A stretch of DNA of 63,521 nt from an uncultured Chloroflexia bacterium (GCA_963751345.1 CAVVUS010000036.1:1-63521); one strand, 5' to 3'; shown: positions 691 to 54,699, counted from the stretch's first letter. A program made the numbers and translations. The notes: a model not told the origin generated them from the sequence alone.

Positions 691-1247
691 TTATTCGGAG
701 GTTCTATGAAACCGGCCATGTGAAGCGGCCAATCTGATGCTCACGTACGCAATCCCGACCATGATGCCTGCCATCAGCCAGATCGATCCTTCCGGCCACA
801 GGATGCTGAGCAGCGTAATAAGGAGAATGAGCCGGTTACGCTGAGCATCATCGCCGGGCTGCTGGTGAGGATGCGGATCGCTGAGCGCAAGGCCAAGCTT
901 CGTGGCGGCGTCTCCTGGTTCTCGAGGAGCAAGCCTAAGGGATAGAGCTGCAGCGCCACCCAGATAAAGGCCAGCACCAACCATAGGGCCCGCAGCCAGA
1001 GCATCATCTTGGGCGTGAGTGTGGGCGGAAGCCCTCAAGGGTGAAGAAACGCACGTTAACGAACAGGGCGACGGCAAGTGCGACGTTCAGCAATGCCACA
1101 ATCCACGCGCGCCGCTGCCAACGAGTTACTATTGGCGACGGGCCCTCGGGTTCCAGGCTCCTGGAGCGCAGCAAGTGATTCGTGGACAATGTTTTTAAGT
1201 AGCTGGTTGTCGCGCTCCAGAGCCGTGATCCGGTCTTCCAGTGCCAA
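691..1247 (-). CDS. Hypothetical multi-TM membrane protein with N-terminal coiled coil (frameshifted)
   Basis: MALEDRITALERDNQLLKNIVHESL N-terminus. Hydrophobic segments are spread over ORFs 1004-1189, 774-1007 and 691-1077, which join by frameshifts. Confidence 0.55.
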
Positions 1248-32563: not shown

Positions 32564-33932
32564 TCAGTCTTCGAAGTAAACCCCGCCCGCCTCGAGCGCC
32601 TCGCGCAGCACACCGTAGGGCAGCTCGCGGGTGCCTTCGTCTCGCAGGGCGCAGAGGGCAGCGGCGGTCCCGGCGGCCTGGCCCTGGCCCATACAGGCCA
32701 CGGTGTTACGCGTTGACATGTGGGCGTCGTGGTCCGACGTGATCATCATCCCGGCGGCCAATAGGTTGTCGAGCCCCGAGACGCGCAGTGCACGATAGGG
32801 GACGCCGTAGGTTCCACCGTCCTTGATCTGGAGCCGCGGGGCAGAGTCGTGGAACCCGTAGGCCAAGACATCGTCATCGAAATGTCGCCCTTCCAGGACG
32901 TCATCACGTGTCACGTCGTAGTCGCACGTGACCAGCCTGCCGCGGCGAATGGTGAGCGAGGGGCTGGTCCGGGCGATAAAGGCTCTCTCGCAGCCGGGGA
33001 CGTACCTCCGGAAGAGATCAACCGCGCGCGCCTGCCGACGACGGAGTTCCACCTCCGCCAGGGCCGCGGCGTCACGGTCCGTGGGGCTCACGTTCATTTT
33101 GTAATTGATCTTCACGAACATAAAGTAGTCGTCGTGGACCGTCGTCGTGACCATCGACATCCCGATCTCCGCAGCGCCCTCCGCAAAGCCCTCGGGCATG
33201 GCGGCACGGCGGCCATCCAGGCGCACGATCTGGTCTTCTCTTGCCGCTGCGCCACCCGCGGGCGTACTGGGTCAGGGCATCGTGCTTGACGATGAAGTCG
33301 TAATACGCCTCCAAGCTCACGTTGGCCAACCCGATGCTATTCACCACAGGATAGTCGTTGGGCTCGACATAGGCCGCACCGGCGCGCGCGCAGAGATCGC
33401 CATAGCCCGTCGTGTCGACGAACGCTTTCGCCATGATGGCCTCGCGGCCCTGATGGCTCTCCGCGATCACACCCTTCAGCTGTGACCCTTCGACGACGGC
33501 GCCGGCGAGCAAGGTGTTGAGGCAGAGATGGACGCCGGCCTGCTCCAACATCGAGAGGGTGACAAGCTTGTAGATCTCGGTGTCGATAGCCGTGCAGACG
33601 GCATCGTAGTCGTAGCCTACAGTCATCTCGGCGTGACCGGTTGTGCCGCCGGCCTCGGCAAGCCGGTCGACGATCTCGGCCGGGATGCCCCTGACCACCT
33701 GGTGTTTCTCTACGCCGGGAAAGGCCTTCCATAGGTTGTAGTAGCTGTGCAGCGCGGTGCCGCCCTCGACGGCGATGCCTCCGGTGTAGCCCTTCATCTC
33801 GATGAGTGCCGTCCGGGCGCCCTGGCGCGCCGCAGCGAGGGCCGCGACGACGCCAGCCGTGCCTCCCCCGGCTACGACGACATCATAGGTGTTGACGGGC
33901 AATTGTTTCGCCGGTTCCGTGTAGGTATGCAA
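32564..33932 (-). CDS. FAD-dependent oxidoreductase (FAD_oxidored family), frameshifted near 33240
   Basis: DVVVAGGGTAG, FVDTTGYGD, YGVPYRAL, MGQGQAAGTAAA. TTG start with AGGAGG. Confidence 0.88.
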
Positions 33933-34123
33933 ATCGTCCTCCTGGTGGGTCTGTGGCGCTGAATGACTCTCGGAGTATAGATGCGATGGATGATAGGGGG
34001 CAACCGTTCCAGAGGCGGCGCCGAACGTGCCGGCGTTTGCTGGTGCGTGCAGCCCAGCGGCGATCCTTCCCGCGATCTGGTGTACTGTACTGACCAATTG
34101 ATATGACTTTATCCCTCTTGGGC

Positions 34124-34175
34124 TTGACATCGTGCCATTTTCATGCTTAAATTGAAATATCAGCCCAATATTTCA
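34124..34175 (+). promoter_or_regulatory. sigma70 promoter with overlapping operator-like palindrome
   Basis: TTGACA (34124-34129), 17 bp, TTAAAT, followed by TGAAATAT-N7-ATATTTCA (34153-34175). Confidence 0.55.
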
Positions 34176-39925: not shown

Positions 39926-41036
39926 ATGCGATGGTCACCTTTCGAACTCGAACGCTACTTTGCACGCTACGAGTTCAATGTGGATTACGTGCTCTGTGCA
40001 TCGGATTGCGAGTCGATGACCGTGGCGGAGTTGCTCGAACTGGAACCGGGCGCCGCGGAGCGGTTCCAGAGCTGTCGGCTGGGTTACACGGACTCCAAGG
40101 GCGATCCGGCATTGCGAGAGGCGATCTCGGCAATCTACGACACCGTCGATTCGGCAGATGTGCTCGTGCACGCCGGCGCAGAGGAGGCTATCTTTCTCTT
40201 CGCTCACGCCGCGCTGGACGCCGGAGACCACGTCGTCGTTCAGTGGCCCTGTTACCAATCGCTGATGGAGGTGGCACATGGACTGGGGTGCCGCATCACG
40301 CCATGGCGGATGCATTGGGACGATGGATGGACGCCCGACGTCGACGAGCTTAGAGCGGCTGGTGACGCCCGGGACCCGCGCCATCGTGATCAACTCGCCC
40401 CATAATCCCACAGGCTATCATATGCCCCGTACTGTGTTTGACAGGGTCGTGGCGTTGTCCGAGCGAACCGGGGCGCTGCTGTTTTCGGATGAGGTCTATC
40501 GCGAGTCCGAATACCGGCCTGAGGATCGCCTTCCGGCCGCCTGTGACGTCAGCCCGCGGGCCGTCTCACTTGGTGTGATGTCCAAGACCTATGGTCTGCC
40601 GGGTCTGCGCATCGGCTGGATCTCGACTCACGACGCGGACCTCCTGCAACGGATGGCACAACTCAAGGACTACACGACCATCTGCAACGCAGCCCCGAGC
40701 GAGTTCCTGGCAGGCGTAGCCCTGCGTCATCGCGAGGTCCTGGTAAACCGTACCGTCGATCTGCTAAGGCGTAACCTGGCTCATCTGGACGCCTTCATGG
40801 CGCGCCACCGTGAGCATTTCGAGTGGCGGCGACCGGGTGCCGGGCCGATCGCTTTCCCGGCGCTTGCGGGGAGTGCGGCTGAGATGGGGGCCGACGCCTT
40901 CTGCGAGCATCTGGTGCGGAAGAGCGGAGTGCTGCTGCTGCCGGGCACTGTGTACGGGGTGCCGGGCCACGTGCGCGTCGGATTCGGGAGACGCGATATC
41001 CCGGAGGCGCTTGCACGATTGGACGCTGTTTGGTGA
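39926..41036 (+). CDS. PLP-dependent aminotransferase class I/II, frameshifted near 40350
   Basis: NSPHNPTG, SDEVYR, MSKTYGLPGLRIGW. Confidence 0.9.
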
Positions 41037-41117: not shown

Positions 41118-44100
41118 TTGAGTGCCTCCACGAACACAACCACCCTCATAACGAAGGTCATGCTGCCCCGCCGGCGTGACGATATTCTGACCCGCCAGCG
41201 GCTGCTCAATGGCCTGTATGATATGGTGGACTACCGGTTGGCGCTGGTCTCTGCGCCTGCCGGCTATGGGAAGACTACGCTTCTTGTGGATTTTGCCACC
41301 GATCTGGAGCATCCCGTTTGCTGGTACGCACTGGATGCCAGCGATCACGATCCCCGGGTCTTCCTGGAGCGGTTGGTGATGGCGCTCCAGCACCGCTTCC
41401 CCAGCTTTGGCCCGGAGACGTTGCGGGCGCTGTCTGCGAGCACCGATCTCCGGGGGGGCGCGCCGGGTGTGGTCAGGGTGCTCGTCAACGAGATCGTTGC
41501 CACGATCCCGCGCTGGTTTGTCTTGGTGCTTGACGACTATCACACGCTCGGCAGGTCGCCGGACGTCGACAGTATTATCTCCAACTTCATAGCCTATCAG
41601 CGCGATCAGTGCCTCACGATCATCGCCAGCCGTACAGTACCCAACCTACCCCTCATTATTCCGCTCGTGGCGCGCGGGGGCGTCGGTGGTATCGGCCCCG
41701 ATCAGATGCGTTTTCTGCCGGAGGAGATCCAGGCGCTCTTTGCCCACAACTACGGCACCGAACTGACGCTCGACGAGGCAACCTCTCTGGCTGAACAGTC
41801 CGAAGGTTGGATCACAGGTCTTCTGCTCACGGCCTATACCAGGCGGCAGGGCGTGCTTCAGAGCTGGATGCGAGCCCGCAGCTCGCATCAGCCTGTCTAT
41901 GATTATCTCACCCAGGAAGTGCTGGATCGCCAGCCACCCGAGATGAGGCACTTTCTCAGCATCTCCTCGACCCTGGCCGATATGAACGAGCGGTTGTGCC
42001 AGGAGATCCTAGGGATCGACAACGCGCTGGATCTGTTGGAGGCGATCGAGGCGGGCAACCTCTTTGTCACCCACTTTGAGGACGATTGGTATCGCTATCA
42101 CCATCTCTTCCGCGAGTTCCTCCAGAACCACTTTCGCCATCAGGACGTGCACGAATGGCGGTCACTTCACGTGCGCGCGGCTCGGTGGTTCGAGAGCCAC
42201 GAGGAGCTAAGCGAGGCTGTCACTCATTACCTCGCGGTCGGTGCCCAGGAGGATGCCGCACGGTTGATGGGGGAGATCGCGTATGACCTCTACGTGACAG
42301 GCCAACTGGCCACTTTGATGACGTGGCGCGCCCAGTTGCCAGACGAGATTCTGCTTGGTGAGCCGCGCCTGGCACTCTACCAGTCACGCGCAGCCTACAA
42401 GCTGGGTCAGCAGGACACGGCGCTCGCCCTGACCGAACTGGCCGAACATGGCTATCGCGAGGCAAACGATATGCAGGGGGTGGCGTATGCGCTGCTGCAC
42501 CGCTGCCAAATCTGGTTAAGTCAGGGGAAAGCTGAGGAAGCCCTTGCTCTTGCCGGTTCCACCCTGTCGCTCATCAATGGTGCCGGCGTCTATGTGGGGC
42601 ACGAGGCGCATCGCATCCTGGGGCTGGCTCACGTCGATCTGGGGGACCTGTCGCACGCCAACGATCACCTGCATCGAGCGCTGGAGCTTAGTGATGCTCA
42701 TGCGGACGCGTACGCCAGCGCCCTGGTGCGAACCGGCTTGGCTCACTGCATCAGCTTGCAGGGGGATCTCGAGGACGCTGTGGCGCTAAACCAGGAGGCC
42801 GTGGTCATCTGGCGCCGTATCGGCAGCGACGCAGGCCTTGCCGACGAGCTCAACGATTTGGGGTTCCATCTCTACACGCTGGGTGAGTACGACGAGGCAA
42901 TGCGATGCTTCCAGGAGGCGCTGGCCTTGAGCAGGCAGACCGGGCTTCGCCAGGCGGAGGCTATCTCCTTGATCAACCTGGGCGAGATGACCTGCGATCT
43001 GGGGCTGTTGGATCAGGCCACTCACTACCTTGAGGCAGGGAACCAGATGGCGCACGCGCTGGGCGATGGCTTCCTGACCGCCTATAGCCTGGAGGCGCTT
43101 GGCCTCGTCCAGCGTGCACAGAAGAGATATGCGGAAGCGGCCGTGACGATCAAGTCGGCCCTCGAACTGGCTACTACCCAGAAGTCTGATTTCCAGCTTG
43201 GCCGCTATCGCTCCTCGTTGGGCATCATTATGGCCGAAGGCGGGCGAGCCGACGAGGGGCTTTCCGAGATCGAGGACGCCATCGAGGTCCTGAGCCGGCT
43301 TGGGGCAGCCGTCGATCTTCACAGGGCCCACCTGCGCAGAGCATGGGCCCTCCACCTTAAGGGTGCTCCGGAGGAGGCTCTGGCACTGTTCGGGAGTCTC
43401 CTGGACGCCGTTCCTGCCGCGGCTGAAGCCCAGGTCTTCGTCGGCGAGGGCCAGCACGCGATGGCGCTGCTCAACGCAGCCCGTCGTGCTTTCAGGGAAC
43501 ATCCAGCGCGGGTGAAGCGGATCAGGGAGATCCTCAGGCGTATTAAGGGACTCAAGGAAGTGGCGGCTCGGCTCTATCCTTTGGCCGCACCTGTCACACG
43601 CGATGGTGAGCCAACCCTGCGGATCTTTGGGTTTGGCCCGGGGCGGGTCGAGCTCAAGGGCGAGACGATCCCGGCGACAGCATGGGGGGCCATAGCGGCC
43701 CGCCAATTGCTCTTCTACATGATGATCCACGAGGCCTGTACCCGCGAGCAGATCGTCGCCGACTTCTGGCCTGATCTGCCCCCGCAGAAGGCGAAAGCCA
43801 GCTTCCACACGACCAAGTTCCGTCTCAACCGGGCACTCGGCGTCGATGCTATCGATTATGATGGCCAGCTCTACATGCTCCATCCGGATCTCAATGTCTG
43901 GTTCGACGTGAAGGAGTTCCACCAGCGCCTCGATAAGTGGCGTGAGACGCAGGACGTAGACGTGCTGGCGGCTGCCACCGAGCTGTACAACGGCGATTTC
44001 CTCTCGGAATGCTATATGGATTGGTGCGGGGTCGAACGAGAGGCCCTGCGCGTCGTCTGTATGGAGGCACTCGAGGCCCTGGCCGAGCGGCTGCTCACCC

Positions 44101-44336
44101 GGAGGCAGTATAAGCGGGCCGTACGTGCATTACGCCAGGCACTCACCCTGGAGCCGACGCGCGAGACCTATCACCAGCAGCTGATGCGCGCCTACGGGCT
44201 CTCAGGACAGCGTAGTGAGGCGTTGGTCCAGTACGAACGGTGTGCGACGGAGCTCCGTGAGCAATTGGGGGCCGCGCCGTCCCAGGATACCGTCGAGTTG
44301 TACCGGCGAATTCTAGAGGAGGCGCCTTTGAGCTAG
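41118..44336 (+). CDS. MalT-like STAND regulator: AAA - winged helix - TPR - OmpR-type HTH/BTAD
   Basis: SAPAGYGKTTLL, VLDDYH, SEGWITGL, YRYHHLFREFL, many TPR-like repeats, LRIFGFG, YNGDFL, LEPTRETYHQQLMRAY. Confidence 0.9.
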   Translation: MSASTNTTTLITKVMLPRRRDDILTRQRLLNGLYDMVDYRLALVSAPAGYGKTTLLVDFATDLEHPVCWYALDASDHDPRVFLERLVMALQHRFPSFGPETLRALSASTDLRGGAPGVVRVLVNEIVATIPRWFVLVLDDYHTLGRSPDVDSIISNFIAYQRDQCLTIIASRTVPNLPLIIPLVARGGVGGIGPDQMRFLPEEIQALFAHNYGTELTLDEATSLAEQSEGWITGLLLTAYTRRQGVLQSWMRARSSHQPVYDYLTQEVLDRQPPEMRHFLSISSTLADMNERLCQEILGIDNALDLLEAIEAGNLFVTHFEDDWYRYHHLFREFLQNHFRHQDVHEWRSLHVRAARWFESHEELSEAVTHYLAVGAQEDAARLMGEIAYDLYVTGQLATLMTWRAQLPDEILLGEPRLALYQSRAAYKLGQQDTALALTELAEHGYREANDMQGVAYALLHRCQIWLSQGKAEEALALAGSTLSLINGAGVYVGHEAHRILGLAHVDLGDLSHANDHLHRALELSDAHADAYASALVRTGLAHCISLQGDLEDAVALNQEAVVIWRRIGSDAGLADELNDLGFHLYTLGEYDEAMRCFQEALALSRQTGLRQAEAISLINLGEMTCDLGLLDQATHYLEAGNQMAHALGDGFLTAYSLEALGLVQRAQKRYAEAAVTIKSALELATTQKSDFQLGRYRSSLGIIMAEGGRADEGLSEIEDAIEVLSRLGAAVDLHRAHLRRAWALHLKGAPEEALALFGSLLDAVPAAAEAQVFVGEGQHAMALLNAARRAFREHPARVKRIREILRRIKGLKEVAARLYPLAAPVTRDGEPTLRIFGFGPGRVELKGETIPATAWGAIAARQLLFYMMIHEACTREQIVADFWPDLPPQKAKASFHTTKFRLNRALGVDAIDYDGQLYMLHPDLNVWFDVKEFHQRLDKWRETQDVDVLAAATELYNGDFLSECYMDWCGVEREALRVVCMEALEALAERLLTRRQYKRAVRALRQALTLEPTRETYHQQLMRAYGLSGQRSEALVQYERCATELREQLGAAPSQDTVELYRRILEEAPLS

Positions 44337-44474
44337 GATTGCCGGGGTGAGCCCCGGCGCTTGATCTACGGAAGCTGTTGTGCGCGCGGGATCCGGATCC
44401 TGCGCGTTTCTGTCTCGCTCGCCTGACTGCCCCACTCCCCCCAGTTTCGACGGATTCCCCAAAGTCGTCCATCT

Positions 44475-44519
44475 CGTTACCGCCACGTTTACCGTTTCGT
44501 AACCGGTCACCTCTATGCT
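44475..44519 (+). promoter_or_regulatory. Putative SARP/BTAD-type activator site with -10 box
   Basis: CGTTACCG (44475), CGTTTACCG (44486), CGTAACCG (44498), spaced 11-12 bp. TATGCT -10 (44514-44519) lies 8 bp after the last repeat; no canonical -35. Confidence 0.5.
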
Positions 44520-44567
44520 GTGAGCAGATTCGAAAAACGAACTCACACACAGCACGGAGGTAGAGAG

Positions 44568-44741
44568 ATGACGGCACGGATGCAGTTGGCCCTGATGAAG
44601 ATGGATGATCCCCGGGTTGTTCGAGTCCTGATGCTCGGACTGGCGATGGTTCTCGCTCTGGTTACACATGGGTCCCCAAGTGGCGCGGAGGCGGTCTATG
44701 CATGCCCATCAACGGGTGGCGGCGGCTGCACGGGCGGGTAG
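44568..44741 (+). CDS. 57-aa putative secreted peptide precursor with C-terminal Cys-Gly-rich core
   Basis: GGAGG RBS 7 nt upstream. MTARMQLALMKMDDPRVVRVLMLGLAMVLALVTHGSPSGAEAVYACPSTGGGGCTGG. Confidence 0.7.
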   Translation: MTARMQLALMKMDDPRVVRVLMLGLAMVLALVTHGSPSGAEAVYACPSTGGGGCTGG

Positions 44742-44757
44742 CACGGAGGTGGGTCCA

Positions 44758-45000
44758 ATGTCCGACATTGCGCTGCGAAGCTTGATCGCCCACGCAGTGG
44801 TCGATCCTCAACTGTGCACGAAGTTACTCGACGGCGAACGGGAGCACGTGCTAGCGCAGTTCGAGTTGGATGACGTGGAGCGGCTGGCGCTAAGGCGAAT
44901 CAAGGCCTCGTCTCTTCAGGCGTTCGCCGCTCAATTGGATGACTGGATGCAGTCGCGCCCCTACATCAGGATGGTGAGCGAGTCTTCAGGTGAGACATAG
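44758..45000 (+). CDS. 80-aa NHLP-leader-like (Os1348/Franean1_4349-like) helical protein
   Basis: GGAGG RBS. LIAHAVVDPQLCTKLL...LAQFELDDVERLAL resembles the 'rA..D..Fr..Ll......l..y.Lt..E..aL' pattern. Confidence 0.6.
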   Translation: MSDIALRSLIAHAVVDPQLCTKLLDGEREHVLAQFELDDVERLALRRIKASSLQAFAAQLDDWMQSRPYIRMVSESSGET

Positions 45001-45009
45001 GATGCGTCT

Positions 45010-45475
45010 ATGACCATTGATTATGCCGTGCTCGACCAGGGATCGCTCGTCTATGCACGCGCGCGAGGCCCTGTGACGGGCGCTGATCTGATCGACCACG
45101 AGCGGAAGCTCCTGGCGGATCCGTGCGTCAAGCGAGGCTATCGGCAGTTGCTGGATTACCGCTGGGTTGCTGATGATGCCATTGAGGAGGGATTCCTCGA
45201 CAGACTGGCTGAGACTCATGCTCGGGGTCGATTGAAGCTGCGCGGGGCCCGTTACGCGATGGTCGCGCAGGGCTCGCGGTGGTTCAGTCTGGGGAACAAG
45301 TACCATTGTGAGCCCTATGGCATGACGCTGATCGTTTTCAACGATCCCAGCACCGCCTGCATATGGCTCGGAGCAGACTTCGCCGACCTGGTAGAGGTGT
45401 GGCGCTCCGGGCCGCGCGCCGACCATGCCGGTTGTGGACCTGGTTGGGGCGGTCACAACCACCCAGACTTCCTAG
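45010..45475 (+). CDS. STAS/SpoIIAA-like small alpha/beta protein; C-terminus probably frameshifted
   Basis: VYARARGPVT..DL, RQLLDYR, RYAMVA, VFNDPSTACIWLG. The called ORF to 45654 would overlap the convergent Crp gene. Confidence 0.55.
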
Positions 45476-45490
45476 CTCATTGGTGTGAAG

Positions 45491-46192
45491 TCAGCGGCCG
45501 GCTATCCGCTCAAGCTCGTCTCGGTTCAAGAGGACGATACGTCCACGCTCTAGCCGGATCAATCCGGCTTCCTCAAGCGCGCGGAGTTCACGTCCTACCA
45601 TGTCGCGCACCGTCCCCAGGTGCACGGCGATCTGCTGTTGGGTCCATTCCCTGACCTCTTCACTTGTCCCGTCTTTCTGGGGGGCGGCGTCAAGGAGGAA
45701 GCGGGCCAGCCTCTCCTGAACTGAGTGAAGCGCGAGCCCCTCCACCAGGTTCGTGAGGTGGCTCAGGCGTTGCGCAAAGTCCCCCAGAACGACCATTGCC
45801 AGGTCTCCATGCGTCCTGACCAGTTGCAGGAAGTCCTCCTTCAGCAGCACACAGAGCGTGACCTCGGTCAGGGCGACCGCATTGGCGGGATTCCGCCCAT
45901 CCGGCTCGAAAACGGGAACGGTATTGAAGGCCTGGCCCGGTCCAAGGCGTACGAGGACCTGCTCACGCCCCTCCTGTGAGACACGATAGACCCGGACAGC
46001 CCCCTCCATGATGAAGTACCCGGCCCGGCAGCGGTCTCCCTCCAGCAGAATGTGCTCGTCGGGTGCGTAGCGCATGACGGCAGCTGCGGCAACCACGCGA
46101 GTGAGCGTTGTCTCTGAGAGGGTGGCGAAGAGGGCCACCTTACGCAGGCGCTCCACATCCATGCTCTCAGTGCTCGTGCGGCTACGCGACAT
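45491..46192 (-). CDS. Crp/Fnr family regulator (HcpR-like by context)
   Basis: cNMP-binding domain (EGDRC, GREQVL, LGPG) and WTQQQIAVHLGTVRDMVGREL HTH. Confidence 0.88.
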   Translation of the reverse strand: MSRSRTSTESMDVERLRKVALFATLSETTLTRVVAAAAVMRYAPDEHILLEGDRCRAGYFIMEGAVRVYRVSQEGREQVLVRLGPGQAFNTVPVFEPDGRNPANAVALTEVTLCVLLKEDFLQLVRTHGDLAMVVLGDFAQRLSHLTNLVEGLALHSVQERLARFLLDAAPQKDGTSEEVREWTQQQIAVHLGTVRDMVGRELRALEEAGLIRLERGRIVLLNRDELERIAGR

Positions 46193-47072
46193 CGATGCTC
46201 TTCGGGGCTGACCGTCCGTCGCCAAGAAGCGCGATAAGCCCCATCAAGCCCATATTCGCGAAGGCCATCGGCGCCAGGATGGGGGCCTCACGCAGGAAAC
46301 GCTCGAAGACGATGGCGTGACCCGCTCCCAGGTCGTGGAGCATGTGAAGTGCAAGGCCAAGAGGGCCTATGACCAAGAGCACAAGCATGCTGAAGGTGTA
46401 GGTCATCAGGTCGCCACGGCTTCTCGTGGAAAGGGTGCCGACAAAGAACGCGACGACAACGCCGAATATGCCCGCAAGCGTGGGAATCCAGAGCCAGGGA
46501 CTGGCGAATCCGCCCCGTACGTGGTCGACGACACTACTAACCGCGGCAATGGCTACGCCGAGGCTGGACAGCAGGAGGTACAAGCTGCTCTTGCGACTCT
46601 CGGGCCGCAGGCCTGAAAGTGTAACCAAGCCCAAGATGCCAACCAAGGCGAAGGAGGCAGGCGCCAGCAGGGGGACACCCCACACGATGAGGCCAAGGGT
46701 GACTCTGGCACCCGCAGGGGCAAAGGGGCGCAGCGATCTCGCCAGGTGAAAATAGGTGCCGACTGAACCGACGAGGATGCTGCCCACCAGGATGACGCGC
46801 ATCAGGGTTGTGGCCCAGGCCGCGCCCTTGCGGCGCCCAACGTAGCCTGCGATTAGGCCGATGGCGGCTGAGGGCCCGAACAAGATCGGGATCCACTCGT
46901 AAGGCCGCAAGGTGCCGTTGCTGATGTGCGCGAGTGTGGCCTCGACACCCAGCAGCAGTTCGTTGAGGATGACAAAGAGCTGATAGACTTCATCTCGGGA
47001 GATTGCGCACCACCGCGCGTCGCACCTAAGCCTGCGAAGTCCCGGAAGGAGGATGGTCAGGTCACCGTTCAT
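46182..47072 (-). CDS. Polytopic membrane protein coupled to the multiheme cytochrome
   Basis: ATGA overlap with the cytochrome stop. Two internal repeats, each with His-bearing helices (LAH...YFH; VDH...LHMLH) and P.LAP motifs. Confidence 0.7.
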   Translation of the reverse strand: MNGDLTILLPGLRRLRCDARWCAISRDEVYQLFVILNELLLGVEATLAHISNGTLRPYEWIPILFGPSAAIGLIAGYVGRRKGAAWATTLMRVILVGSILVGSVGTYFHLARSLRPFAPAGARVTLGLIVWGVPLLAPASFALVGILGLVTLSGLRPESRKSSLYLLLSSLGVAIAAVSSVVDHVRGGFASPWLWIPTLAGIFGVVVAFFVGTLSTRSRGDLMTYTFSMLVLLVIGPLGLALHMLHDLGAGHAIVFERFLREAPILAPMAFANMGLMGLIALLGDGRSAPKSIDVA

Positions 47073-48340
47073 GGGGACGATTGCCCGGTTAGCTCGGAAC
47101 CTATGCTTCGCAGCTCGGCTAGATCGCTCAGTATCTCGTAGGCGCCGTGCCACTGCACATAGTCAGGCCCCTGCATCCAGGCGCCAAACTTGACCGTACG
47201 CCCCCAATGGTGCCAGAGCTCGAAGGAGACGAAATCTACCGGCTGGTCGAAGGGCTCAGAAGTCAGGGCGCCGGCCTGCTGCAGGGGCGCCAGGATGCTG
47301 TTGCTCTCCGCAACCCAATCGTTTACTGCCGTCGTCGCTGCATCTGCAGCCGTGTAGAAGTTGCTGATAAACGTCGCATTGTGGCAGGCGCTGCACACGC
47401 CCTGCATGCGGTCGACGTTCGCCGCCCAATCGGGCCGACGTGTGCTCTGTGACGCGAAGAGATACCATGCCAGACGTTCCCCAACGTCGTGGGTCGTACC
47501 GGTTGCGCCAAACCCGCTGATATGGCAAGTGGCGCACGTGGGTGCAGGTAGGTCAACCGGCGTCAGCGTGCCCGGATCGGCGTCCCAATGCCAGTCGCTC
47601 CCGCCGGTCAGATATGCGATGCCGTGTGGTGATTCCTGGTAGATCTCCCATTGCGGGTGGTCTGGACCGATGTGGCACGCATTGCACGTCTCCGGCTTAC
47701 GCGCTTGCTCCAAGCTAAAAGAGTGGCGTAAGTGACAGTCTTGACACTCTCCCACCGAACCATCGGAGCGCGGCAGGCCCACGTTGTGGCAAGTCTCGCA
47801 CGCGAACTGGGTGACATCGGGCCCCTCCAGCGCGTAGAGTTGGTTGCGTTCCTGATCCGGTGCGTAGGTGCCCTCAGGGATGGCTTGGTACTTTGCCAGC
47901 ATCTCCACCGACAGTCCTTGAGCGCCGGCATAGGCTACATACGCAGGCAGGCTGTGGCGACTCGCGTAGAACTGGTCGGTCTCCGCCTCGTGGCAGGCCC
48001 TGCATTTCGCAGGGGTTGGGCTGCTGAGCACCCACGTGCCTTCATGGGCGACAGCTTCGGGATAGCTCTCAGGCACTTCATGACAGTCCTTGCACGTCGT
48101 TCCGGCGGCTGCCATGGTGCTTCGGCCAAACTGATCAACGATACCGGGTGACTCGTCACGATGACACGTGACACACGGGTCCGTGCTCTCGGCCAAGGCG
48201 TCCACGGCCTTCACAGGCATTGCGAGACTTTGTCGCTCACCGAGCCCCGCGATGATCAAGCCTAGACCGACGACGATCAGCGTTGCCGTCACGCCGACCA
48301 CGACGGTTCTTACCGATTTCCACGTGATGGTTCGCGACAT
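47069..48340 (-). CDS. Octaheme cytochrome c, hydroxylamine oxidoreductase-like
   Basis: Eight CxxCH (CVTCH, CKDCH, CRACH, CETCH, CQDCH, CNACH, CATCH, CSACH), GPDHPQWEIYQESPHG, GPDYVQWHG, N-terminal TM. Confidence 0.88.
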   Translation of the reverse strand: MSRTITWKSVRTVVVGVTATLIVVGLGLIIAGLGERQSLAMPVKAVDALAESTDPCVTCHRDESPGIVDQFGRSTMAAAGTTCKDCHEVPESYPEAVAHEGTWVLSSPTPAKCRACHEAETDQFYASRHSLPAYVAYAGAQGLSVEMLAKYQAIPEGTYAPDQERNQLYALEGPDVTQFACETCHNVGLPRSDGSVGECQDCHLRHSFSLEQARKPETCNACHIGPDHPQWEIYQESPHGIAYLTGGSDWHWDADPGTLTPVDLPAPTCATCHISGFGATGTTHDVGERLAWYLFASQSTRRPDWAANVDRMQGVCSACHNATFISNFYTAADAATTAVNDWVAESNSILAPLQQAGALTSEPFDQPVDFVSFELWHHWGRTVKFGAWMQGPDYVQWHGAYEILSDLAELRSIGSELTGQSSP

Positions 48341-48432
48341 AGGGCCCTCCCTGGGTCTCGGCTCATTGCCTGCTGGGTTGTGTCTGAGTGCCTTACTATA
48401 GCACCGATCCTCATCAGCAGAACTCGGGTCCG

Positions 48433-48475
48433 TGTGACTTTTGTCGTAGTCATTGGGCGCCTCCGCTGGTAGGAT
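48433..48475 (+). promoter_or_regulatory. Crp/Fnr-type box plus extended -10 of the ferredoxin-hcp operon
   Basis: TGTGA-N6-TCGTA (48433-48448) and TG-n-TAGGAT (48470-48475). The box is centred about -41.5 from the predicted TSS. Confidence 0.55.
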
Positions 48476-48537
48476 AGGAGTCGGGTCGGGCGTTATCAGT
48501 GGGCTCGCCGTCGGTGAGGTTCGGTGTGGAGGGCGAA

Positions 48538-48774
48538 ATGTCTATACGGAGTGTACCAATCATTGATCGTGGCGCCTGCACGGCCTGCGGTATCTGTGTG
48601 GCGGCGTGCCCGGAGCACGTGGTTGCGTTGGATGCGCACGAGCTGGTGTTGGTGCACCCTGAATCTTGCACTTACTGTGGCCAGTGTGAGTCGAGCTGCC
48701 CGGTCGATGCTATCGCGCTCCCCTATACCATTACCTGGGATAAAGGCAGCCAAGGGGCTGTAGGGCGCCCTTAG
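48538..48774 (+). CDS. 2x[4Fe-4S] ferredoxin
   Basis: CTACGICVAACP and CTYCGQCESSCP. Confidence 0.9.
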   Translation: MSIRSVPIIDRGACTACGICVAACPEHVVALDAHELVLVHPESCTYCGQCESSCPVDAIALPYTITWDKGSQGAVGRP

Positions 48775-48824
48775 CCACGCCGGTCATATCCTAATCTATC
48801 AGTTTATCGCACAAGGAGGTTGTA

Positions 48825-50513
48825 ATGTCGGAGATGTTCTGTTATCAGTGCCAGGAAGCGGCCAAGAACGAAGGTTGCACGGTTCGCGGCGTCTGTGGCA
48901 AGACGCCGGAGGTCGCGCATCTGCAGGATCTGCTCACGTGGCTGCTCAAAGGGATCTCGTTCTGGGCTGTCCGCGGGCGTAAGAATCTGGGTATCGTCGA
49001 ACCGGAGACCGACCGGTTCGTCGCTGAGGCACTGTTTGCGACGGTGACTAATGTGAACTTCGATCCGGATCGCCACGTCGCGTGGATCAAGGAAGCCGTG
49101 ACACGGCGTGACGCGTTGCGCGCACGCGCTCAGGCCCGATGCGGCCAGTTGCACGGCGCCGGCGCCTGTTCGGCGAATCTGCCCGAGCACGCGGTCTGGA
49201 CGCCGAAGAGCTACGAGACTAAGATATTGGATATGAAGGGGCAGTTGGTTGGCGTGCTGGCTGACCCGGCGCTGGATCCCGATATCCGCTCGCTGCGCGA
49301 GCTGCTGATCTATGGGCTCAAGGGTATGGCTGCCTACACCGAGCACGCTTACGTTCTGGAGAAGGCTAACGATAACATCCTCGCTTTCATCGAGGAGGCA
49401 CTGGATGCCACGACGGACGACGAGCTGGGCGCGGACGACCTGGTTGGCTTGGTCCTGAGGACCGGCGAGATGGGGGTGGAGGCCATGCGTCTGCTGGATG
49501 AGGCGAACACGGGCGCCTACGGCAACCCCGAGCCGACGCAGGTCAGCCTGGGTGTTCGGCCCGGCCCCGCCATCCTGGTGAGTGGTCACGATCTCCGGGA
49601 CCTGCAGGAGCTGCTTGAGCAGACGAAGGATCGCGGAGTCAACGTCTACACGCACGGGGAGATGCTGCCCGCCAACGCCTATCCGGCCTTCAAGGCTTAC
49701 GATCACTTCGTCGGAAACTATGGCGGATCGTGGTGGCATCAGCAGAATGAGTTCGATCGTTTCGGCGGGGCGATTCTGATGACGACAAACTGCCTCGTCC
49801 AACCACGGGAGAGCTACAAGGACAGGCTCTTCACGACCGGACTCGTGGGGTGGCCTGGAGCGACCCATATCTCGGATCGTCAGCCAGGTGGGCAGAAGGA
49901 TTTCAGCCCCGTGATCGCGGCGGCTTTGGCTTCGGATGAGCCGCAGGCGCTTGAAGAGGGGACGATCCCCATCGGCTTTGCTCACGCCACCGTGATGGGT
50001 GTGGCGGACAAAGTGATCGAGGCTGTCCAGGCCGGTGACATTCGCCGGTTCGTGGTGATGGCGGGGTGTGATGGACGGCAACAGTCGCGCGACTACTTCA
50101 CGGACGTGGCGCAGGAGCTTCCGGCGGATCACGTGATCCTGACGGCGGGCTGCGCCAAGTACCGGTACAATAAGCTCGATCTGGGCGACATCGGCGGCAT
50201 CCCGCGGGTGCTCGATGCAGGGCAGTGCAACGACTCCTACTCGCTCGCCTACATTGCGCTGCAACTCAAGGCAGCACTGGGTCTGGACGATATCAACGAT
50301 CTGCCGATCTCCTACGATATCGCTTGGTACGAGCAGAAGGCGGTATTAGTGCTCCTAGCACTGCTATCGCTAGGGGTGAAGCATATCCGCTTGGGCCCGT
50401 CTCTGCCGGCCTTTCTGTCGCCGGGCGTGACCGATGTGCTAGTGAAACACTTTGATATCAAACCCACGGGGACTGTAGAAGAAGACGTCGCGGCGATCGC
50501 GGCGGGTGCGTAG
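48825..50513 (+). CDS. hcp: Hybrid cluster protein (hydroxylamine/NO reductase)
   Basis: MFCYQCQE...[50 protein letters not shown]. Confidence 0.97.
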
Positions 50514-50552
50514 AGAACCAGAGCCAGAAGCGGATCGAAAGAGAGGCTAACG

Positions 50553-51728
50553 ATGGATGGTCGAGTGGTGACCGAACGAGTGACTCTGTTGGGCGGTGTC
50601 GACTGGCATCGACGGCTGTTTGACGCCTTGATTCCGCTGCCCGAGGGCACGAGTTACAATGCTTATCTGATCAAGGGTAGTGAGAGGACCGCGCTGCTGG
50701 ATACCGCGGATCCCTCTATGAGCGACGCCTTGCTGCGCCAACTGGCCGGCGTGGACCGGATCGACTACATCGTCGCCCACCACGCGGAGCAGGATCACGC
50801 GGGGACGCTTCCCCAACTGCTGGCGCGATACCCTGAAGCAAAGGTAGTTGCCAGCACCAAGGGAAAGGCGATGCTCCTGGATCTACTCCACCTGCCGGGA
50901 GAACGCGTGGAGATGGTAGATGACGGGCAGCGGCTCTCGCTGGGAGATCGGACGTTGGAGTTCGTCTATGCGCCGTGGGTGCATTGGCCCGAGACTATGC
51001 TCACGTACCTTCTCGAGGAGAGGATTCTCTTCACCTGTGACTTTTTCGGCTCGCACTACGCTACGTCGGAGACGTTCGTCGCGGGCAATGCCCACGTGGT
51101 TGAGGCGGCCAAGCGTTACTATGCGGAGATCATGATGCCGTTCCGCAGGCCGATCGAACGTCACCTTGCCAAGCTAGCGACGTACGACGTCGAGCTGATC
51201 GCCCCCGGCCACGGGCCCGTGTGGAACCAGCCGACAGAGATCCTCGATGCTTACCGCGACTGGGTGAGTGGGCCGCCGAAGAATCTGGCCGTGATCCCTT
51301 TCATCTCAATGCATGGTAGCACTCGCGAGCTCGTCGACCGTCTGGTGGCATCACTGACGGCGCGTGGTGTGCACGTGCAGCCCTTTGATCTGACGGTCAC
51401 CGATCTCGGCAACCTGGCGATGGCGCTCGTGGACGCGGCCACGGTGGTCATCGGGTCGCCGACGGTGCTGGGCGGTGCGCATCCCCAGGCGGCATATGCC
51501 GCCAGCCTGGCGAACGCCTTGCGACCCAAGACGCGTTATGCCAGCGTCGTCGGCTCCTACGGTTGGGCCGGCGGCGCAGCGGAGGCGCTGGTGGCTGCGA
51601 TGCCCGCGCTCAAGGTTGATGTGTTGGACCCCGTGCTGGTCCAGGGCAAGCCCCGGGACCGTGACTTCGCGGCTGTTGACGTACTGGCCGCGACAATCGC
51701 CCAGAAGCACCGAGAGCTGGATCGCTGA
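50553..51728 (+). CDS. fprA: Flavodiiron protein (FprA/NorV-like)
   Basis: GTSYNAYLI, HHAEQDHAG, VHWPE, CDFFG, PGHG, flavodoxin SMHGST and GSPT. Confidence 0.92.
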   Translation: MDGRVVTERVTLLGGVDWHRRLFDALIPLPEGTSYNAYLIKGSERTALLDTADPSMSDALLRQLAGVDRIDYIVAHHAEQDHAGTLPQLLARYPEAKVVASTKGKAMLLDLLHLPGERVEMVDDGQRLSLGDRTLEFVYAPWVHWPETMLTYLLEERILFTCDFFGSHYATSETFVAGNAHVVEAAKRYYAEIMMPFRRPIERHLAKLATYDVELIAPGHGPVWNQPTEILDAYRDWVSGPPKNLAVIPFISMHGSTRELVDRLVASLTARGVHVQPFDLTVTDLGNLAMALVDAATVVIGSPTVLGGAHPQAAYAASLANALRPKTRYASVVGSYGWAGGAAEALVAAMPALKVDVLDPVLVQGKPRDRDFAAVDVLAATIAQKHRELDR

Positions 51729-51740
51729 GAGGAGGGTACG

Positions 51741-53016
51741 ATGAGCGAGATCATCAATAACCAGACACAGAGAGAGGCAAAACTGAAGGCTATCATTCGC
51801 CAGCTTCACGAGGGGCGGCCGGTAGACGAAGTGAAGTTGGCGTTCGCGGATCTGCTGGAGGACGTGGGGCCTGATGAGATCGTGCGCATCGAGGAAGCCC
51901 TGGTCGCTGAGGGCCTGGACCCGGCAGAGATCCAACCGCTGTGCGATATCCATGTCTCGGTCTTCAAGGAAAGCCTGGATGGGCAGCGAGCGCCGGAGAC
52001 GTTGCCCGGGCACCCGATCTTCACCTATCGGGCGGAGAACCTGGGCGTGGCACGCGTGCTCGACGAGGTCGGTGAGGCGCTCAACGACTACGTCTCCCTC
52101 CCGAATGAGCACACCCGAGAGGAGGCGCAGGCAGCCCTCGTACAGCTCATGGAATACGACAGGCATTATCTGCGGAAGGAGAACCTGCTCTTTCCCTACC
52201 TGGAGCGCACCGGTTTCGTCGGGCCGAGCAAGGTGATGTGGGGGGTGCACGACGAGATCCGGGAGATGTGGCGCGCGCTCTCAACCGCCGTGGAGGAATC
52301 CCAACCGGCAGTGGGAGGGAAGCCGGACACTGCGCTGCTGGCGAAGTTCGAGCCTCTCGCAGAGGCGATTCGGTCGATGGTCTACAAGGAAGAGCACATT
52401 CTCTTCCCTGCGGCGCTGCAGCGACTCAATGATGCCGACTGGGCGGCTATCCGTGACCAGGGCGATGAGATCGGTTACAGCTACGCCCGCCCCGGGCGCG
52501 CTTGGGCTCCGGGGATGGGCGTCCCCGACGCCGAGACGGCGAAGACGGCCGCTCACGGCGGGGCTGCAGCGGAGGTGGCATCTATCGTACCTCCGAGCGG
52601 CGGCATTCCGCTCAACACAGGCGTGCTCACGGCGGAGCAGATCAACCTGATGTTGAGGACGCTGCCGGTGGACGTGACGTTTGTCGACGAGTACGATGAA
52701 GTGCGCTACTTCACGCAGGGCCGCGAGCGCATTTTCCAGCGGTCCCCGGCGATCATCGGCCGGAAGGTGCAGAACTGCCATCCTCCCCAGAGCTCTAGGC
52801 CGCGTGCAACAGATCCTGGACGACTTCCGTGCCGGCGTTCGCGATGTGGCCGAGTTCTGGATCCAGATGGCGCCCGAGGGCGAGCCGCTCTTCGTGCACA
52901 TACGCTACTTCGCCTTGCGCAGCGAGGACGGCACGTATCGTGGCACGATCGAGGTCACTCAGAATCTGACGCCGCTGCGGGCGCTGGAAGGGGAGAAGCG
53001 ACTGCTGGCAGAGTGA
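51741..53016 (+). CDS. DUF438 / hemerythrin-like / PAS domain protein, frameshifted near 52795
   Basis: LCDIH, GHPI, HYLRKENLLFP, VMWGVHDEIR, LPVDVTFVD, VQNCHPP. Confidence 0.9.
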
Positions 53017-53018
53017 GT

Positions 53019-53063
53019 AGGGAGAATGACAGGAACACAGTCTGTGTTCCTGTCATTCTCCCT
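53019..53063. terminator. 22-bp perfect inverted repeat between convergent genes
   Basis: AGGGAGAATGACAGGAACACAG-T-CTGTGTTCCTGTCATTCTCCCT. Confidence 0.7.
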
Positions 53064-54699
53064 TTGTGGCAGCAAACACCCTGCTCAACACCACGTTTGC
53101 CAGTTCGAGACCCGCCTTGGTGGCCAGACCCCAGGTGAGCAGGGCGAGATAATCGGCCAGTGAACCGAAGTTCGTGGTGAAGTAGCGATCAAGTCCCGCG
53201 ATTATTGACGTGGCCAGCGCGATCCCTGTGACCGTGCGCTCACCGATGAGCAGCGCGTCGTCGACGTAGGCCAGCCGCTCGCTGTCGGAGCCCAGGCGTT
53301 CGTACAGGTCGAGATTGAGGCGAGGAAGGCGGAAGGTGTCGAGCCTCGCATAGGTGCGCACGAGTGATCGCAGCTTTCCCAGGATGTCGATGGGGAAGCT
53401 CTCCACAGACTCGCCGGCCTCGGGCAGTGTGCCCTTGGCCGCCGCAGCCATCGCCTCGACCTGCTCGGAGAGCTCGGAACCCGCGTAGTAGACGAAGGGG
53501 TCCATCAGGCGTCGTGTCAGTTCCTGGGCGGATGTGAGTTCCTGCTCCGCTTCACGCTGCCCCAGGTCATCCAGGTCCGTCGCCTCCCACAGGTCACGGG
53601 CGGCAGAGTTGAGGTGGTGCCGCGCCGTCTCCAACATCCCCTGCTCGCTCTCACTGAGGTCGATGCCGGGCTTGCTCAGCTCGCGGATCGCGTCTCGGAC
53701 GAGAATGCCGAGTGCGTAGAGCTCACCCCAGGAGCCTGCAAGAGTTGCAGCCTTGTCGATGCGGTCCGCGTAGGTAGGCACCTGGGGCATCTGAAGCTTG
53801 GTTCCGCGGAGCAGCTCTCGCCCCACGGTGTAAAACCGGGGTTCCTGTAACTCAATATCGCCAGGGCGCTCGGCCTGGTCAATCACCGGGCGAGCATCCT
53901 GGAGGAGCTTGCGACCCAGACGGTCCAGCTTCTCACGAAAGTGGGACCAGACCTCGGTCTCTTGCTCCAGATCCGCCAACGGCTTGAGGATCGTGACCTG
54001 GAAGGCCTCGCGCTCGCCCTCCGTCGGTTCACCGTAGTGTGTGCGATCCCAATTGCGGATCGCGACATCCAGCGCGTCCCTGCGAAGCTGGAAGTCCTCT
54101 GCGACCGTGTAGCCATGGACAGACTTGCGCAGCTTGGCGAAGGTCAGGCTGACGGCGTTCAGACGCCGGAGCAGCTGGAGTGTCGTCTTGCGAATCGTCA
54201 GATAGCGTTGCACCTCGCGTGCGGCGGCGACGCCGGCCCAAACGACGAGCAGTGGCCAGAGGATGATGTCCTTGACGTTGACGGTCAGGTCGACGCTGCC
54301 GGCGTCGGGGGCCTCGGGAGCGAAGTCCACCGTGCCCGCGTAGGTGCCGCTCAGCCCCCAGCGACGGTCGAAATCCAGTGAGAGGCGGGCGCCCTGGCGC
54401 GCGTCGGCACTCTCAAGGACAACCGCGATCCCTCCACCGCGGACGTTGCCCAGGTACCCCAGCCGGGTCGGGCTGATGGGGGTGGCATTGACGCTGTCGA
54501 GCGGCAGCGTGCAGCCGAGGGCCAATCCGCGGATGCAGATGGGGTCCAGGAAGGGAAGGATCCTGACGGCATTGAGCGTCCACGTGTCCACGGCGGGAAG
54601 CCCTGGCAGGGAAGGGGGGACAGTCAGTGCTGCTGTGGGCCCAGCAGTCACCAACAGCGCAAATAGCGCGGCGAGGATCAGCCATCGTGTACCTGTCAT
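53053..54699 (-). CDS. Hypothetical membrane protein (signal peptide, TM, long helical region, two C-terminal TMs)
   Basis: Long intact ORF with the hydrophobic pattern described; no recognised family. Confidence 0.7.
   Translation of the reverse strand: MTGTRWLILAALFALLVTAGPTAALTVPPSLPGLPAVDTWTLNAVRILPFLDPICIRGLALGCTLPLDSVNATPISPTRLGYLGNVRGGGIAVVLESADARQGARLSLDFDRRWGLSGTYAGTVDFAPEAPDAGSVDLTVNVKDIILWPLLVVWAGVAAAREVQRYLTIRKTTLQLLRRLNAVSLTFAKLRKSVHGYTVAEDFQLRRDALDVAIRNWDRTHYGEPTEGEREAFQVTILKPLADLEQETEVWSHFREKLDRLGRKLLQDARPVIDQAERPGDIELQEPRFYTVGRELLRGTKLQMPQVPTYADRIDKAATLAGSWGELYALGILVRDAIRELSKPGIDLSESEQGMLETARHHLNSAARDLWEATDLDDLGQREAEQELTSAQELTRRLMDPFVYYAGSELSEQVEAMAAAAKGTLPEAGESVESFPIDILGKLRSLVRTYARLDTFRLPRLNLDLYERLGSDSERLAYVDDALLIGERTVTGIALATSIIAGLDRYFTTNFGSLADYLALLTWGLATKAGLELANVVLSRVFAATKGE

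Follow-up and report, generated by a model that had tools for sequence, protein, structure and literature searches.

AfsR-AfsS of Streptomyces coelicolor is the closest analogue of the gene cassette reported here, which is found in an uncultured Chloroflexia bacterium (GCA_963751345.1) on a 63,521-nucleotide (nt) stretch of DNA, CAVVUS010000036.1:1-63521, termed the window. AfsR consists of an OmpR-type DNA-binding domain, a BTAD, a STAND ATPase and TPRs, with the SARP part (DNA-binding domain and BTAD) at the N-terminus. An excerpt of PMC10972967 describes SARP sites as heptameric direct repeats, classically in 11-bp units and often three in number. In an excerpt of PMC11301090 the 3′ site sits 8 bp upstream from the −10 element and overlaps the −35 element, and AfsR is stated to activate afsS. 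The cassette consists of a regulator gene (REG) and three small genes, which encode a mini-peptide (PEP), an NHLP-like protein and a STAS-like protein. Judged from the sequence, REG probably activates the PEP-NHLP-STAS genes directly and, in this genus, a histidine kinase-PPK2 operon as well, which would make the cassette a signalling module of the AfsR-AfsS kind. The cassette seems to be undescribed, as literature searches gave no earlier description of it.

Several other known systems resemble parts of the cassette. MalT, the STAND activator of Escherichia coli, shares with the N-terminal 800 residues of REG a P-loop NOD and a MalT-like TPR/SUPR sensor, but has a LuxR-type HTH as output where REG carries a SARP. 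RRNPP receptors are cytoplasmic TPR regulators adjoining a short gene, whose peptide has an export-type N-terminus; these receptors consist of an HTH (or phosphatase) and TPRs and are not known to carry an NTPase or SARP domain. The tails of pheromones generally diversify. MgrB-like proteins are single-pass peptides of about 50 residues whose short outer tail bears two Cys; they are induced by a regulator and act on sensor kinases. Precursors of RiPPs (peptides made on the ribosome and modified after translation) of the NHLP type are described, in an excerpt of Haft (2010), as having a Gly-Gly cleavage motif and a Cys/Ser/Thr-rich core, with a C39-ABC exporter and a maturase in the genome. An excerpt of PMC7726476 reports a bacteriocin-like cluster with Os1348 as a small precursor protein.

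The regulator and its candidate operator

An earlier note on this DNA, made from the sequence alone, had described four co-oriented genes and a repeat-containing promoter, and the open reading frames (ORFs) together with inspection of the window's sequence confirm both, with REG, PEP, the NHLP-like and the STAS-like gene all on the + strand. The note also took REG to be a MalT-like STAND regulator with TPRs and a C-terminal OmpR-HTH/BTAD. This is borne out by Pfam, NCBIfam and alignment with AfsR and EmbR. In Pfam, REG residues 939–1066 match BTAD with 83.3 bits (cut-off 22.1) and several TPR families exceed their cut-offs; AAA_16 (20 bits, cut-off 32.6) and TPR_MalT stay below theirs, and Trans_reg_C is not reported at E ≤ 0.1. 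In NCBIfam, the MalT model NF003420 aligns over positions 5–806 of 903 with REG residues 12–810 (273.7 bits, E-value = 3e-81, cut-off 537), and the AfsR model NF053617 gives 101.5 bits against a cut-off of 1430. With both scores below the cut-offs, with its SARP at the C-terminus rather than ahead of NOD and TPR, and with an output other than the LuxR-type HTH, REG is neither an AfsR nor a MalT equivalog.

The last ~245 residues of REG (~828–1070) align unbroken by phmmer with the DNA-binding domain and BTAD of AfsR, residues 19–267 (8hvr, E-value = 5e-11), and with EmbR residues 16–260 (E-value = 8e-10). An OmpR-type winged helix followed by a BTAD is the composition that defines the SARP family. 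A P-loop NOD with Walker motifs and a C-terminal repeat sensor, which defines STAND NTPases, is found as well; neither Walker A (APAGYGKTT) nor Walker B (VLVLDDYH) varies among 12 REG orthologues. From the family matches and the unbroken SARP alignment, REG thus combines a STAND ATPase, a TPR sensor and a complete SARP in an order the reverse of that in AfsR. The sequence strongly supports reading it as a domain-permuted AfsR whose P-loop NOD is intact, whose sensor consists of TPRs and whose DNA-binding/activation SARP domain is complete. Mean pairwise column identity among the 12 orthologues is 0.79 for the NOD, 0.69 for the winged helix and 0.46 for the distal TPR (residues 631–830), the most variable section of the protein. 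Among PADLOC defence models, REG matches a generic TPR model alone (E-value = 1.6e-11) and not the Avs-like anti-phage STAND model, and the three small proteins match none.

Between REG and PEP there is a terminator-like hairpin, followed by three direct repeats and a −10 box (Table 1). No sigma-70-type two-hexamer promoter is found in 44200–45800. The promoter alignment consists of 23 sequences of the genus, 19 PEP promoters and four second sites described below. In all 23, no alignment gap interrupts the stretch that begins with repeat 1 and ends with the −10 box, the 8-nt spacing is constant, and the T, A and final T of the −10 box are invariant or nearly so. The PEP promoter thereby displays what is predicted to be a SARP operator, i.e. 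direct repeats in units of ~11 bp, of which the 3′ one takes the place of a −35 at 8 bp upstream of the −10, as in AfsR-AfsS. That its geometry (no −35, three repeats on one face of the helix, 8 nt to the −10) is the known SARP geometry is strongly supported by the alignment. A strict form of the operator motif occurs at 2 sites only in the 5.4-Mb genome of this organism (93% complete), C36:44487 and C19:129831. Across 22 genomes of the genus the strict motif gives 14 matches in 9 genomes and a reversed control gives 0. The genome scan with the strict motif shows no copy at REG's own gene.

The second operator copy precedes a 775 amino acid (aa) hybrid histidine kinase with transmembrane, PAS, HisKA, HATPase and receiver regions. 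It is followed by PPK2, a 196 aa protein with a sub-threshold Peptidase_C39_2 match (E-value = 0.0017) and a luciferase-like monooxygenase. Kinase and PPK2 follow the second site of genome G003 in the same order, PPK2 follows directly and without the kinase in G015, and the downstream genes in G006 are ambiguous. PPK2, with or without the hybrid kinase, is therefore found at 3/4 second sites and the kinase at just 2/4.

The likeness to AfsR-AfsS includes a SARP domain alignable over its whole length and, as predicted for the cassette, a target gene for a small protein adjacent to the regulator. It does not extend to the targets themselves: the membrane mini-peptide, the NHLP-fold protein and the STAS or receiver protein are unrelated to AfsS, and the phylum is Chloroflexota.

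An inverted repeat, 44509–44522 / 44548–44561, was considered as a possible mask of the PEP ribosome-binding site (RBS) and dropped, as relatives do not conserve its 5′ arm.

Table 1. Positions of the cassette features in the window, and of the second operator copy elsewhere in the genome
Feature	Position	Strand	Description
REG	41118..44336	+	1072 aa; Pfam and NCBIfam matches, SARP alignment, Walker motifs
REG domains	residues ~30-260, ~400-830, ~828-1072		P-loop NOD (~30-260), helical arm, MalT-like TPR sensor (~400-830), C-terminal SARP, winged helix-turn-helix and BTAD (~828-1072)
Terminator-like hairpin	44382..44407 (stem), T-rich tail to 44417	+	11-pair stem with 7 GC pairs, inverted repeat; 3′ of REG stop
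Candidate operator	44475..44505	+	three direct repeats, starts 11 and 12 nt apart
Repeat 1	44475-44482	+	CGTTACCG
Repeat 2	44486-44494	+	CGTTTACCG
Repeat 3	44498-44505	+	CGTAACCG
−10 box	44514-44519	+	TATGCT; 8 nt beyond repeat 3; no −35 consensus
PEP	44568..44741	+	57 aa; RBS GGAGG 44556-44560; stop at 44741
NHLP-like gene	44758..45000	+	80 aa; RBS GGAGG 44745-44749; conserved 66-residue domain and short variable tail
STAS (SpoIIAA/DUF3478)-fold gene	45010..45475	+	fold conserved over residues 1-~132; weak RBS (AGGA)
Second operator copy	C19:129823-134738 (L068 7824-12739)		three repeats and −10 box, with the four genes downstream of them all within this span

Linkage of regulator and cassette

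The STAS-fold gene is found in 14/21 other genomes of the genus, and among 19 genomes outside the genus there is one weak match. The NHLP-like, STAS and convergent Crp genes are present in all of 14 longer loci of the genus. REG is situated upstream in 11 of these, two of them with spacers of 1.4 kb or 4.3 kb, and contig ends truncate two of the 14 loci. Orthologues of REG, at 52% identity or more, occur in 12/14 cassette-positive and 0/7 cassette-negative genomes of the genus, a contrast in gene content that is suggestive and is not a statistical test. Activation of the adjacent small operon by the regulator, as the earlier note had proposed, is upheld as a prediction by the SARP-type operator in 23/23 promoters, the two motif sites in the genome and the co-occurrence of REG.

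Across the class, a profile of the NHLP-like protein matches 90/301 genomes in 60/176 genera, and the neighbourhood counts that follow come from 29 loci that were fetched. A REG-like SARP end is found directly upstream and on the same strand in 21/29; contig ends truncate six loci, and two show none. A mini-ORF is present between the REG-like and NHLP-like genes in 24/29, and its product has a basic N-terminus, a single hydrophobic stretch and a short tail rich in Gly. The gene after the NHLP-like gene encodes a stand-alone receiver in 16/29 loci, DUF5317 in three, and a PAS-histidine kinase, a REC-REC protein, a GAF-HD-GYP protein and an HD-GYP-type HD_5 protein in one each; the rest are peptidases or unclassified. 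Promoters in the other genera display lineage-specific direct repeats with an offset of 10–12 nt, just ahead of TAnnnT. By a rough measure, a 10–12 nt direct repeat exceeds 95% of shuffles in 15/21 loci tested. These comparisons strongly support the same repeat geometry ahead of homologous mini-peptide genes beside REG-like genes in other genera. The conserved core consists of regulator, mini-peptide and NHLP-like protein, and the STAS-fold gene and the Cys pair of PEP belong to this genus.

Related sequences were also seen at two other places. In another class of the phylum, 15 loci (L107–L121) encode, between a TPR protein and a P-loop protein, a 72 aa relative of the NHLP-like protein that ends in ...SKSAGRGF[FI]; here too the fold is paired with TPR and NTPase proteins. 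A 5.4-kb contig labelled as an Armatimonadota metagenome-assembled genome (L041) contains the NHLP-like gene, a homologue of PEP and REG at 59% identity, and is either mis-binned Chloroflexota or a case of transfer.

Several observations weigh against control of the cassette by REG and against a signalling role. Genome G004 (91% complete) is cassette-positive, yet it has no REG orthologue, shows no REG within 9 kb of the cassette and retains just two repeats in the promoter. In G012 and in the metagenome contig L044, ~4.3 kb lie between REG and PEP (L019 4962–9317; L044 2811–7169), and two of the class-wide loci (L078 and L086) show no REG-like gene within 1.4 kb. Because the genomes are kin, their co-occurrence counts make the support look stronger than it is. 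No RNA run is listed as containing 43900–45700. The repeat test used mononucleotide shuffles, and in L093 and L095 it picked C-runs over the repeats seen by eye. Finally, the roles suggested for PEP, the NHLP-like and the STAS protein are read from fold, topology and neighbours only.

The state of G004 also favours another explanation, in which adjacency is misleading: an OmpR-family response regulator or another SARP paralogue would bind the repeats and REG would control something else. OmpR-type winged-helix proteins generally bind direct repeats, and the genome encodes 9 further BTAD proteins, although none of these paralogues exceeds 39% identity to REG in the DNA-binding part. Of the 23 loci that no contig end truncates, 21 nevertheless have the REG-like gene directly upstream, in many genera, and the sequence of the repeats shifts by lineage while their geometry is constant. 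With REG orthologues also absent from the cassette-negative genomes of the genus, such a misassignment is quite improbable.

The three small proteins

Both of the first two small genes have the strong RBS that the earlier note ascribed to them, and that of the third is weak. The PEP start is the conserved ATG at 44568, 7 nt past GGAGG, and not the GTG at 44520; start and RBS are kept in all 12 loci of the genus first compared. The peptide has a basic N-terminus with a conserved DPR, one hydrophobic segment, the sequence V-Y-A and a 12-residue Gly-rich tail, CPSTGGGGCTGG. PEP and its relatives form 69 clusters in a database of 5.8 billion proteins, nearly all of 52–58 aa; protein atlas scores for PEP are all ≤ 0.85. 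Variable sites are distributed 30/26/51 over codon positions 1/2/3 and mean pN/pS is 0.33. Thus PEP is a coding gene under purifying selection. The tail is among its best-conserved parts, with V43, A45, P47, G50, G51 and G53 invariant in 21 sequences, and a [VIA][YFL][AG] site precedes the tail in 68/69 clusters.

Two Cys residues are present in 56/69 clusters, one in 6 and neither in 7. Outside the genus, mini-peptide tails are 7–15 residues long, Cys is mostly absent and Pro usually stands right after the small-residue site. By this sequence comparison the Cys pair is a genus-level feature and is not conserved across the family. The terminal Cys pair that the earlier note offered as a search criterion is accordingly real in this peptide but no feature of the family. 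A lipoprotein reading of V-Y-A-C as a general feature was rejected, since 12/69 clusters carry D, S, N, H, Y or E at the position of the Cys. The simplest reading that we infer for PEP is a mini-protein that crosses the membrane once and has a tiny tail outside, with a possible cut after V-Y-A. MgrB is similar in layout, and a membrane histidine kinase shares the operator of the cassette; however, MgrB shows no sequence relation to PEP and the kinase lies under the operator at no more than half of the second sites.

The earlier note went further and proposed that the TPRs of REG sense the processed peptide. In full, such a loop would have PEP exported and cut; the short Cys-bridged peptide would then accumulate outside, re-enter, bind the TPRs and induce the operon that encodes it, in the manner of RRNPP systems and with a STAND-SARP protein as the receptor. 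The n-h-c layout of PEP, the small-residue site ahead of the tail and the variability of the distal TPR are consistent with this. In addition, since the architecture of REG points to activation of the PEP promoter, any positive ligand from the operon would close a loop. The tail, however, is conserved and not diversified like that of pheromones, and the Cys pair is dispensable. Outside the genus Pro usually occupies the position after the presumed cleavage site, and Pro at +1 blocks signal peptidase I, a rule for which no usable literature support was found. No Opp-type importer is found near the cassette, the adjacent ABC system being of the SBP_bac_1 sugar type, and the operator is missing from REG's own gene. 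REG also falls outside the RRNPP receptors by its STAND NOD and SARP, and the predicted operon encodes two further proteins. A peptide loop of this form is, on balance, unlikely, and the claim is not supported.

The NHLP-like protein scores below the cut-offs of the NHLP-clan models, with 25.5 bits for PF14407 (cut-off 48), a family reportedly defined by Iyer et al. in 2009, and 27.6 bits for the Os1348 family model NF038399 (cut-off 40). NF038399 is matched by 19/21 members of the NHLP-like family, all under the cut-off. An AlphaFold2 (AF2) model consists of five helices (pLDDT 76). Foldseek gives nothing in the PDB at E ≤ 0.001 for this model. In a wide structural search (VIA) the best match of this helical model is a borosin precursor (Z = 5.3) and all Z values are under 8; the crystal structure of Os1348, 6lk7, is a weak match at rank 28 (Z = 3.9, root-mean-square deviation 2.7 over 55 residues, 22% identity). 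A complex prediction of REG residues 400–830 with the NHLP-like protein, run without controls, gave a score of 0.00, which speaks in neither direction on binding.

Comparison of the members shows no conserved Gly-Gly cleavage motif and no Cys/Ser/Thr-rich modifiable core, so that the protein differs from NHLP precursors in composition as well as in score. The tail varies between genera, and between near-identical strains it is shifted by a frame-changing 1-nt indel; contigs from other public runs carry one extra base after 44985, which turns the tail into that of a 78-aa form (P0001). The gene is mostly single-copy per genome. A single-sequence word search yields 21 clusters, which understates the family, and the profile yields 303 representatives in a 50% library. 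In the protein atlas the nearest clusters are Chloroflexota proteins, and PF14407 is found on 38% of the members of one of them (rank 8).

The STAS-like gene was taken by the earlier note to end at 45475. This is the end found in relatives, whose ORF stops at TAG 45473–45475, but the frame as given in the window runs from 45010 to 45654 and overlaps the convergent Crp gene. One base fewer near 45418–45421 is needed for the shorter form, and the window has one base more than genome G002 of the genus near 45420. Both contigs from other runs that cover 45418–45421 (X1 and X4) lack one base, 45418 or 45421, which restores the end of the relatives. An AF2 model of the protein has a pLDDT of 90.7, and Foldseek finds 10 PDB chains at E ≤ 0.001, all SpoIIAA-like or anti-sigma antagonists. 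The best match is 2q3l (E-value = 4.5e-5) and others are SpoIIAA, RsfB and RsbV, with TM scores of 0.5–0.65 and E-values of 4.5e-5 to 1e-3. By its model, the third gene product is a STAS alpha/beta fold. It differs from SpoIIAA and DUF3478 proteins in that no Pfam or NCBIfam STAS model is matched, no HATPase anti-sigma gene is adjacent, and its profile finds 0 of 300 other genomes of the class.

The receiver, histidine kinase or HD-GYP protein that stands elsewhere in the place of the third gene, and the lack of a maturase in the window, had led the earlier note's preference for signalling over an antibiotic RiPP to be retained here; the cassette is supported as a signalling module and not a peptide-antibiotic cluster. 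A RiPP natural-product locus, with PEP or the NHLP-like protein as precursor and maturation and export genes elsewhere, is very unlikely: the sub-threshold NHLP-clan matches, the weak Os1348 and borosin alignments and the tails that differ between genera favour it, but maturase and PCAT families are absent from the 59 ORFs of the window, YcaO (PF02624) and Peptidase_C39 (PF03412) from the genome, and cleavage motif and core from a single-copy protein whose tail changes by frameshift between near-identical strains, and the neighbours in the 29 loci are signalling proteins.

Neighbouring genes and the proposed circuit

Two other genes of the window appear to be interrupted. A class I/II aminotransferase at 39926–41036 is spread over two ORFs that overlap in different frames; it is a single frame in G002, and a single-base indel in the assembly is the probable cause. 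On the − strand at 32564–34130, two overlapping ORFs represent the C- and N-terminal halves of FAD_oxidored (PF12831), which looks frameshifted. Together with the single-base differences at 44985 and 45418–45421, the split genes suggest scattered single-base errors or strain indels.

Downstream of the cassette, 45491–53138 contains the Crp/Fnr regulator, convergent to the cassette, and then a membrane protein, a multihaem cytochrome, a ferredoxin, a hybrid cluster protein, an ODP-type di-iron protein and a DUF438-hemerythrin-PAS protein. The group has the look of a nitrosative-stress cluster and is conserved beside the cassette within the genus, with the cytochrome pair present in some genomes and absent in others. 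At 256–555 on the − strand a 99 aa ORF matches Arch_flagellin over its first 30 residues (30.9 bits, cut-off 29.5), probably a pilin-like N-terminus.

If REG drives the cassette, as appears probable, the circuit may run as follows. A cue read by the TPR/NOD part would switch REG on, and its SARP domains would bind the repeats and make up for the absent −35 contact, so that PEP-NHLP-STAS and, in this genus, the hybrid histidine kinase-PPK2 operon as well would be transcribed. PEP would insert in the membrane with the N-terminus inside and the Gly-rich tail outside, where it may be cut. The NHLP-fold and STAS-fold proteins could act in the cytoplasm as small adaptor or switch proteins that join the output of REG to two-component signalling, and in most other genera the receiver domain would stand in for the STAS protein. 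A bolder and unlikely extension is that the Gly-tailed mini-peptide is a released or surface-exposed cue in bacterial peptide signalling of a new kind, with feedback from the peptide to either the regulator or the membrane kinase under the same control; STAND-SARP regulator, NHLP fold with a lost RiPP role and receiver or STAS protein would then form one circuit conserved across Chloroflexota.

Anaerolineae, which are seldom grown in culture, abound in digesters, sediments and soils, and to our knowledge almost nothing is known of their gene regulation. The cassette provides a regulator, operator and target set that is ready to be tested, with an operator that can be read from the sequence and targets that are tiny proteins of a kind often missed by gene callers. 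The presence of an NHLP-type "leader" fold outside natural-product clusters matters for genome mining, and NHLP-like ORFs beside BTAD/TPR regulators should not be counted among the orphan precursors of RiPPs. Should the peptide turn out to be a signal, this would be, as far as literature searches show, the first peptide signalling system for the phylum.

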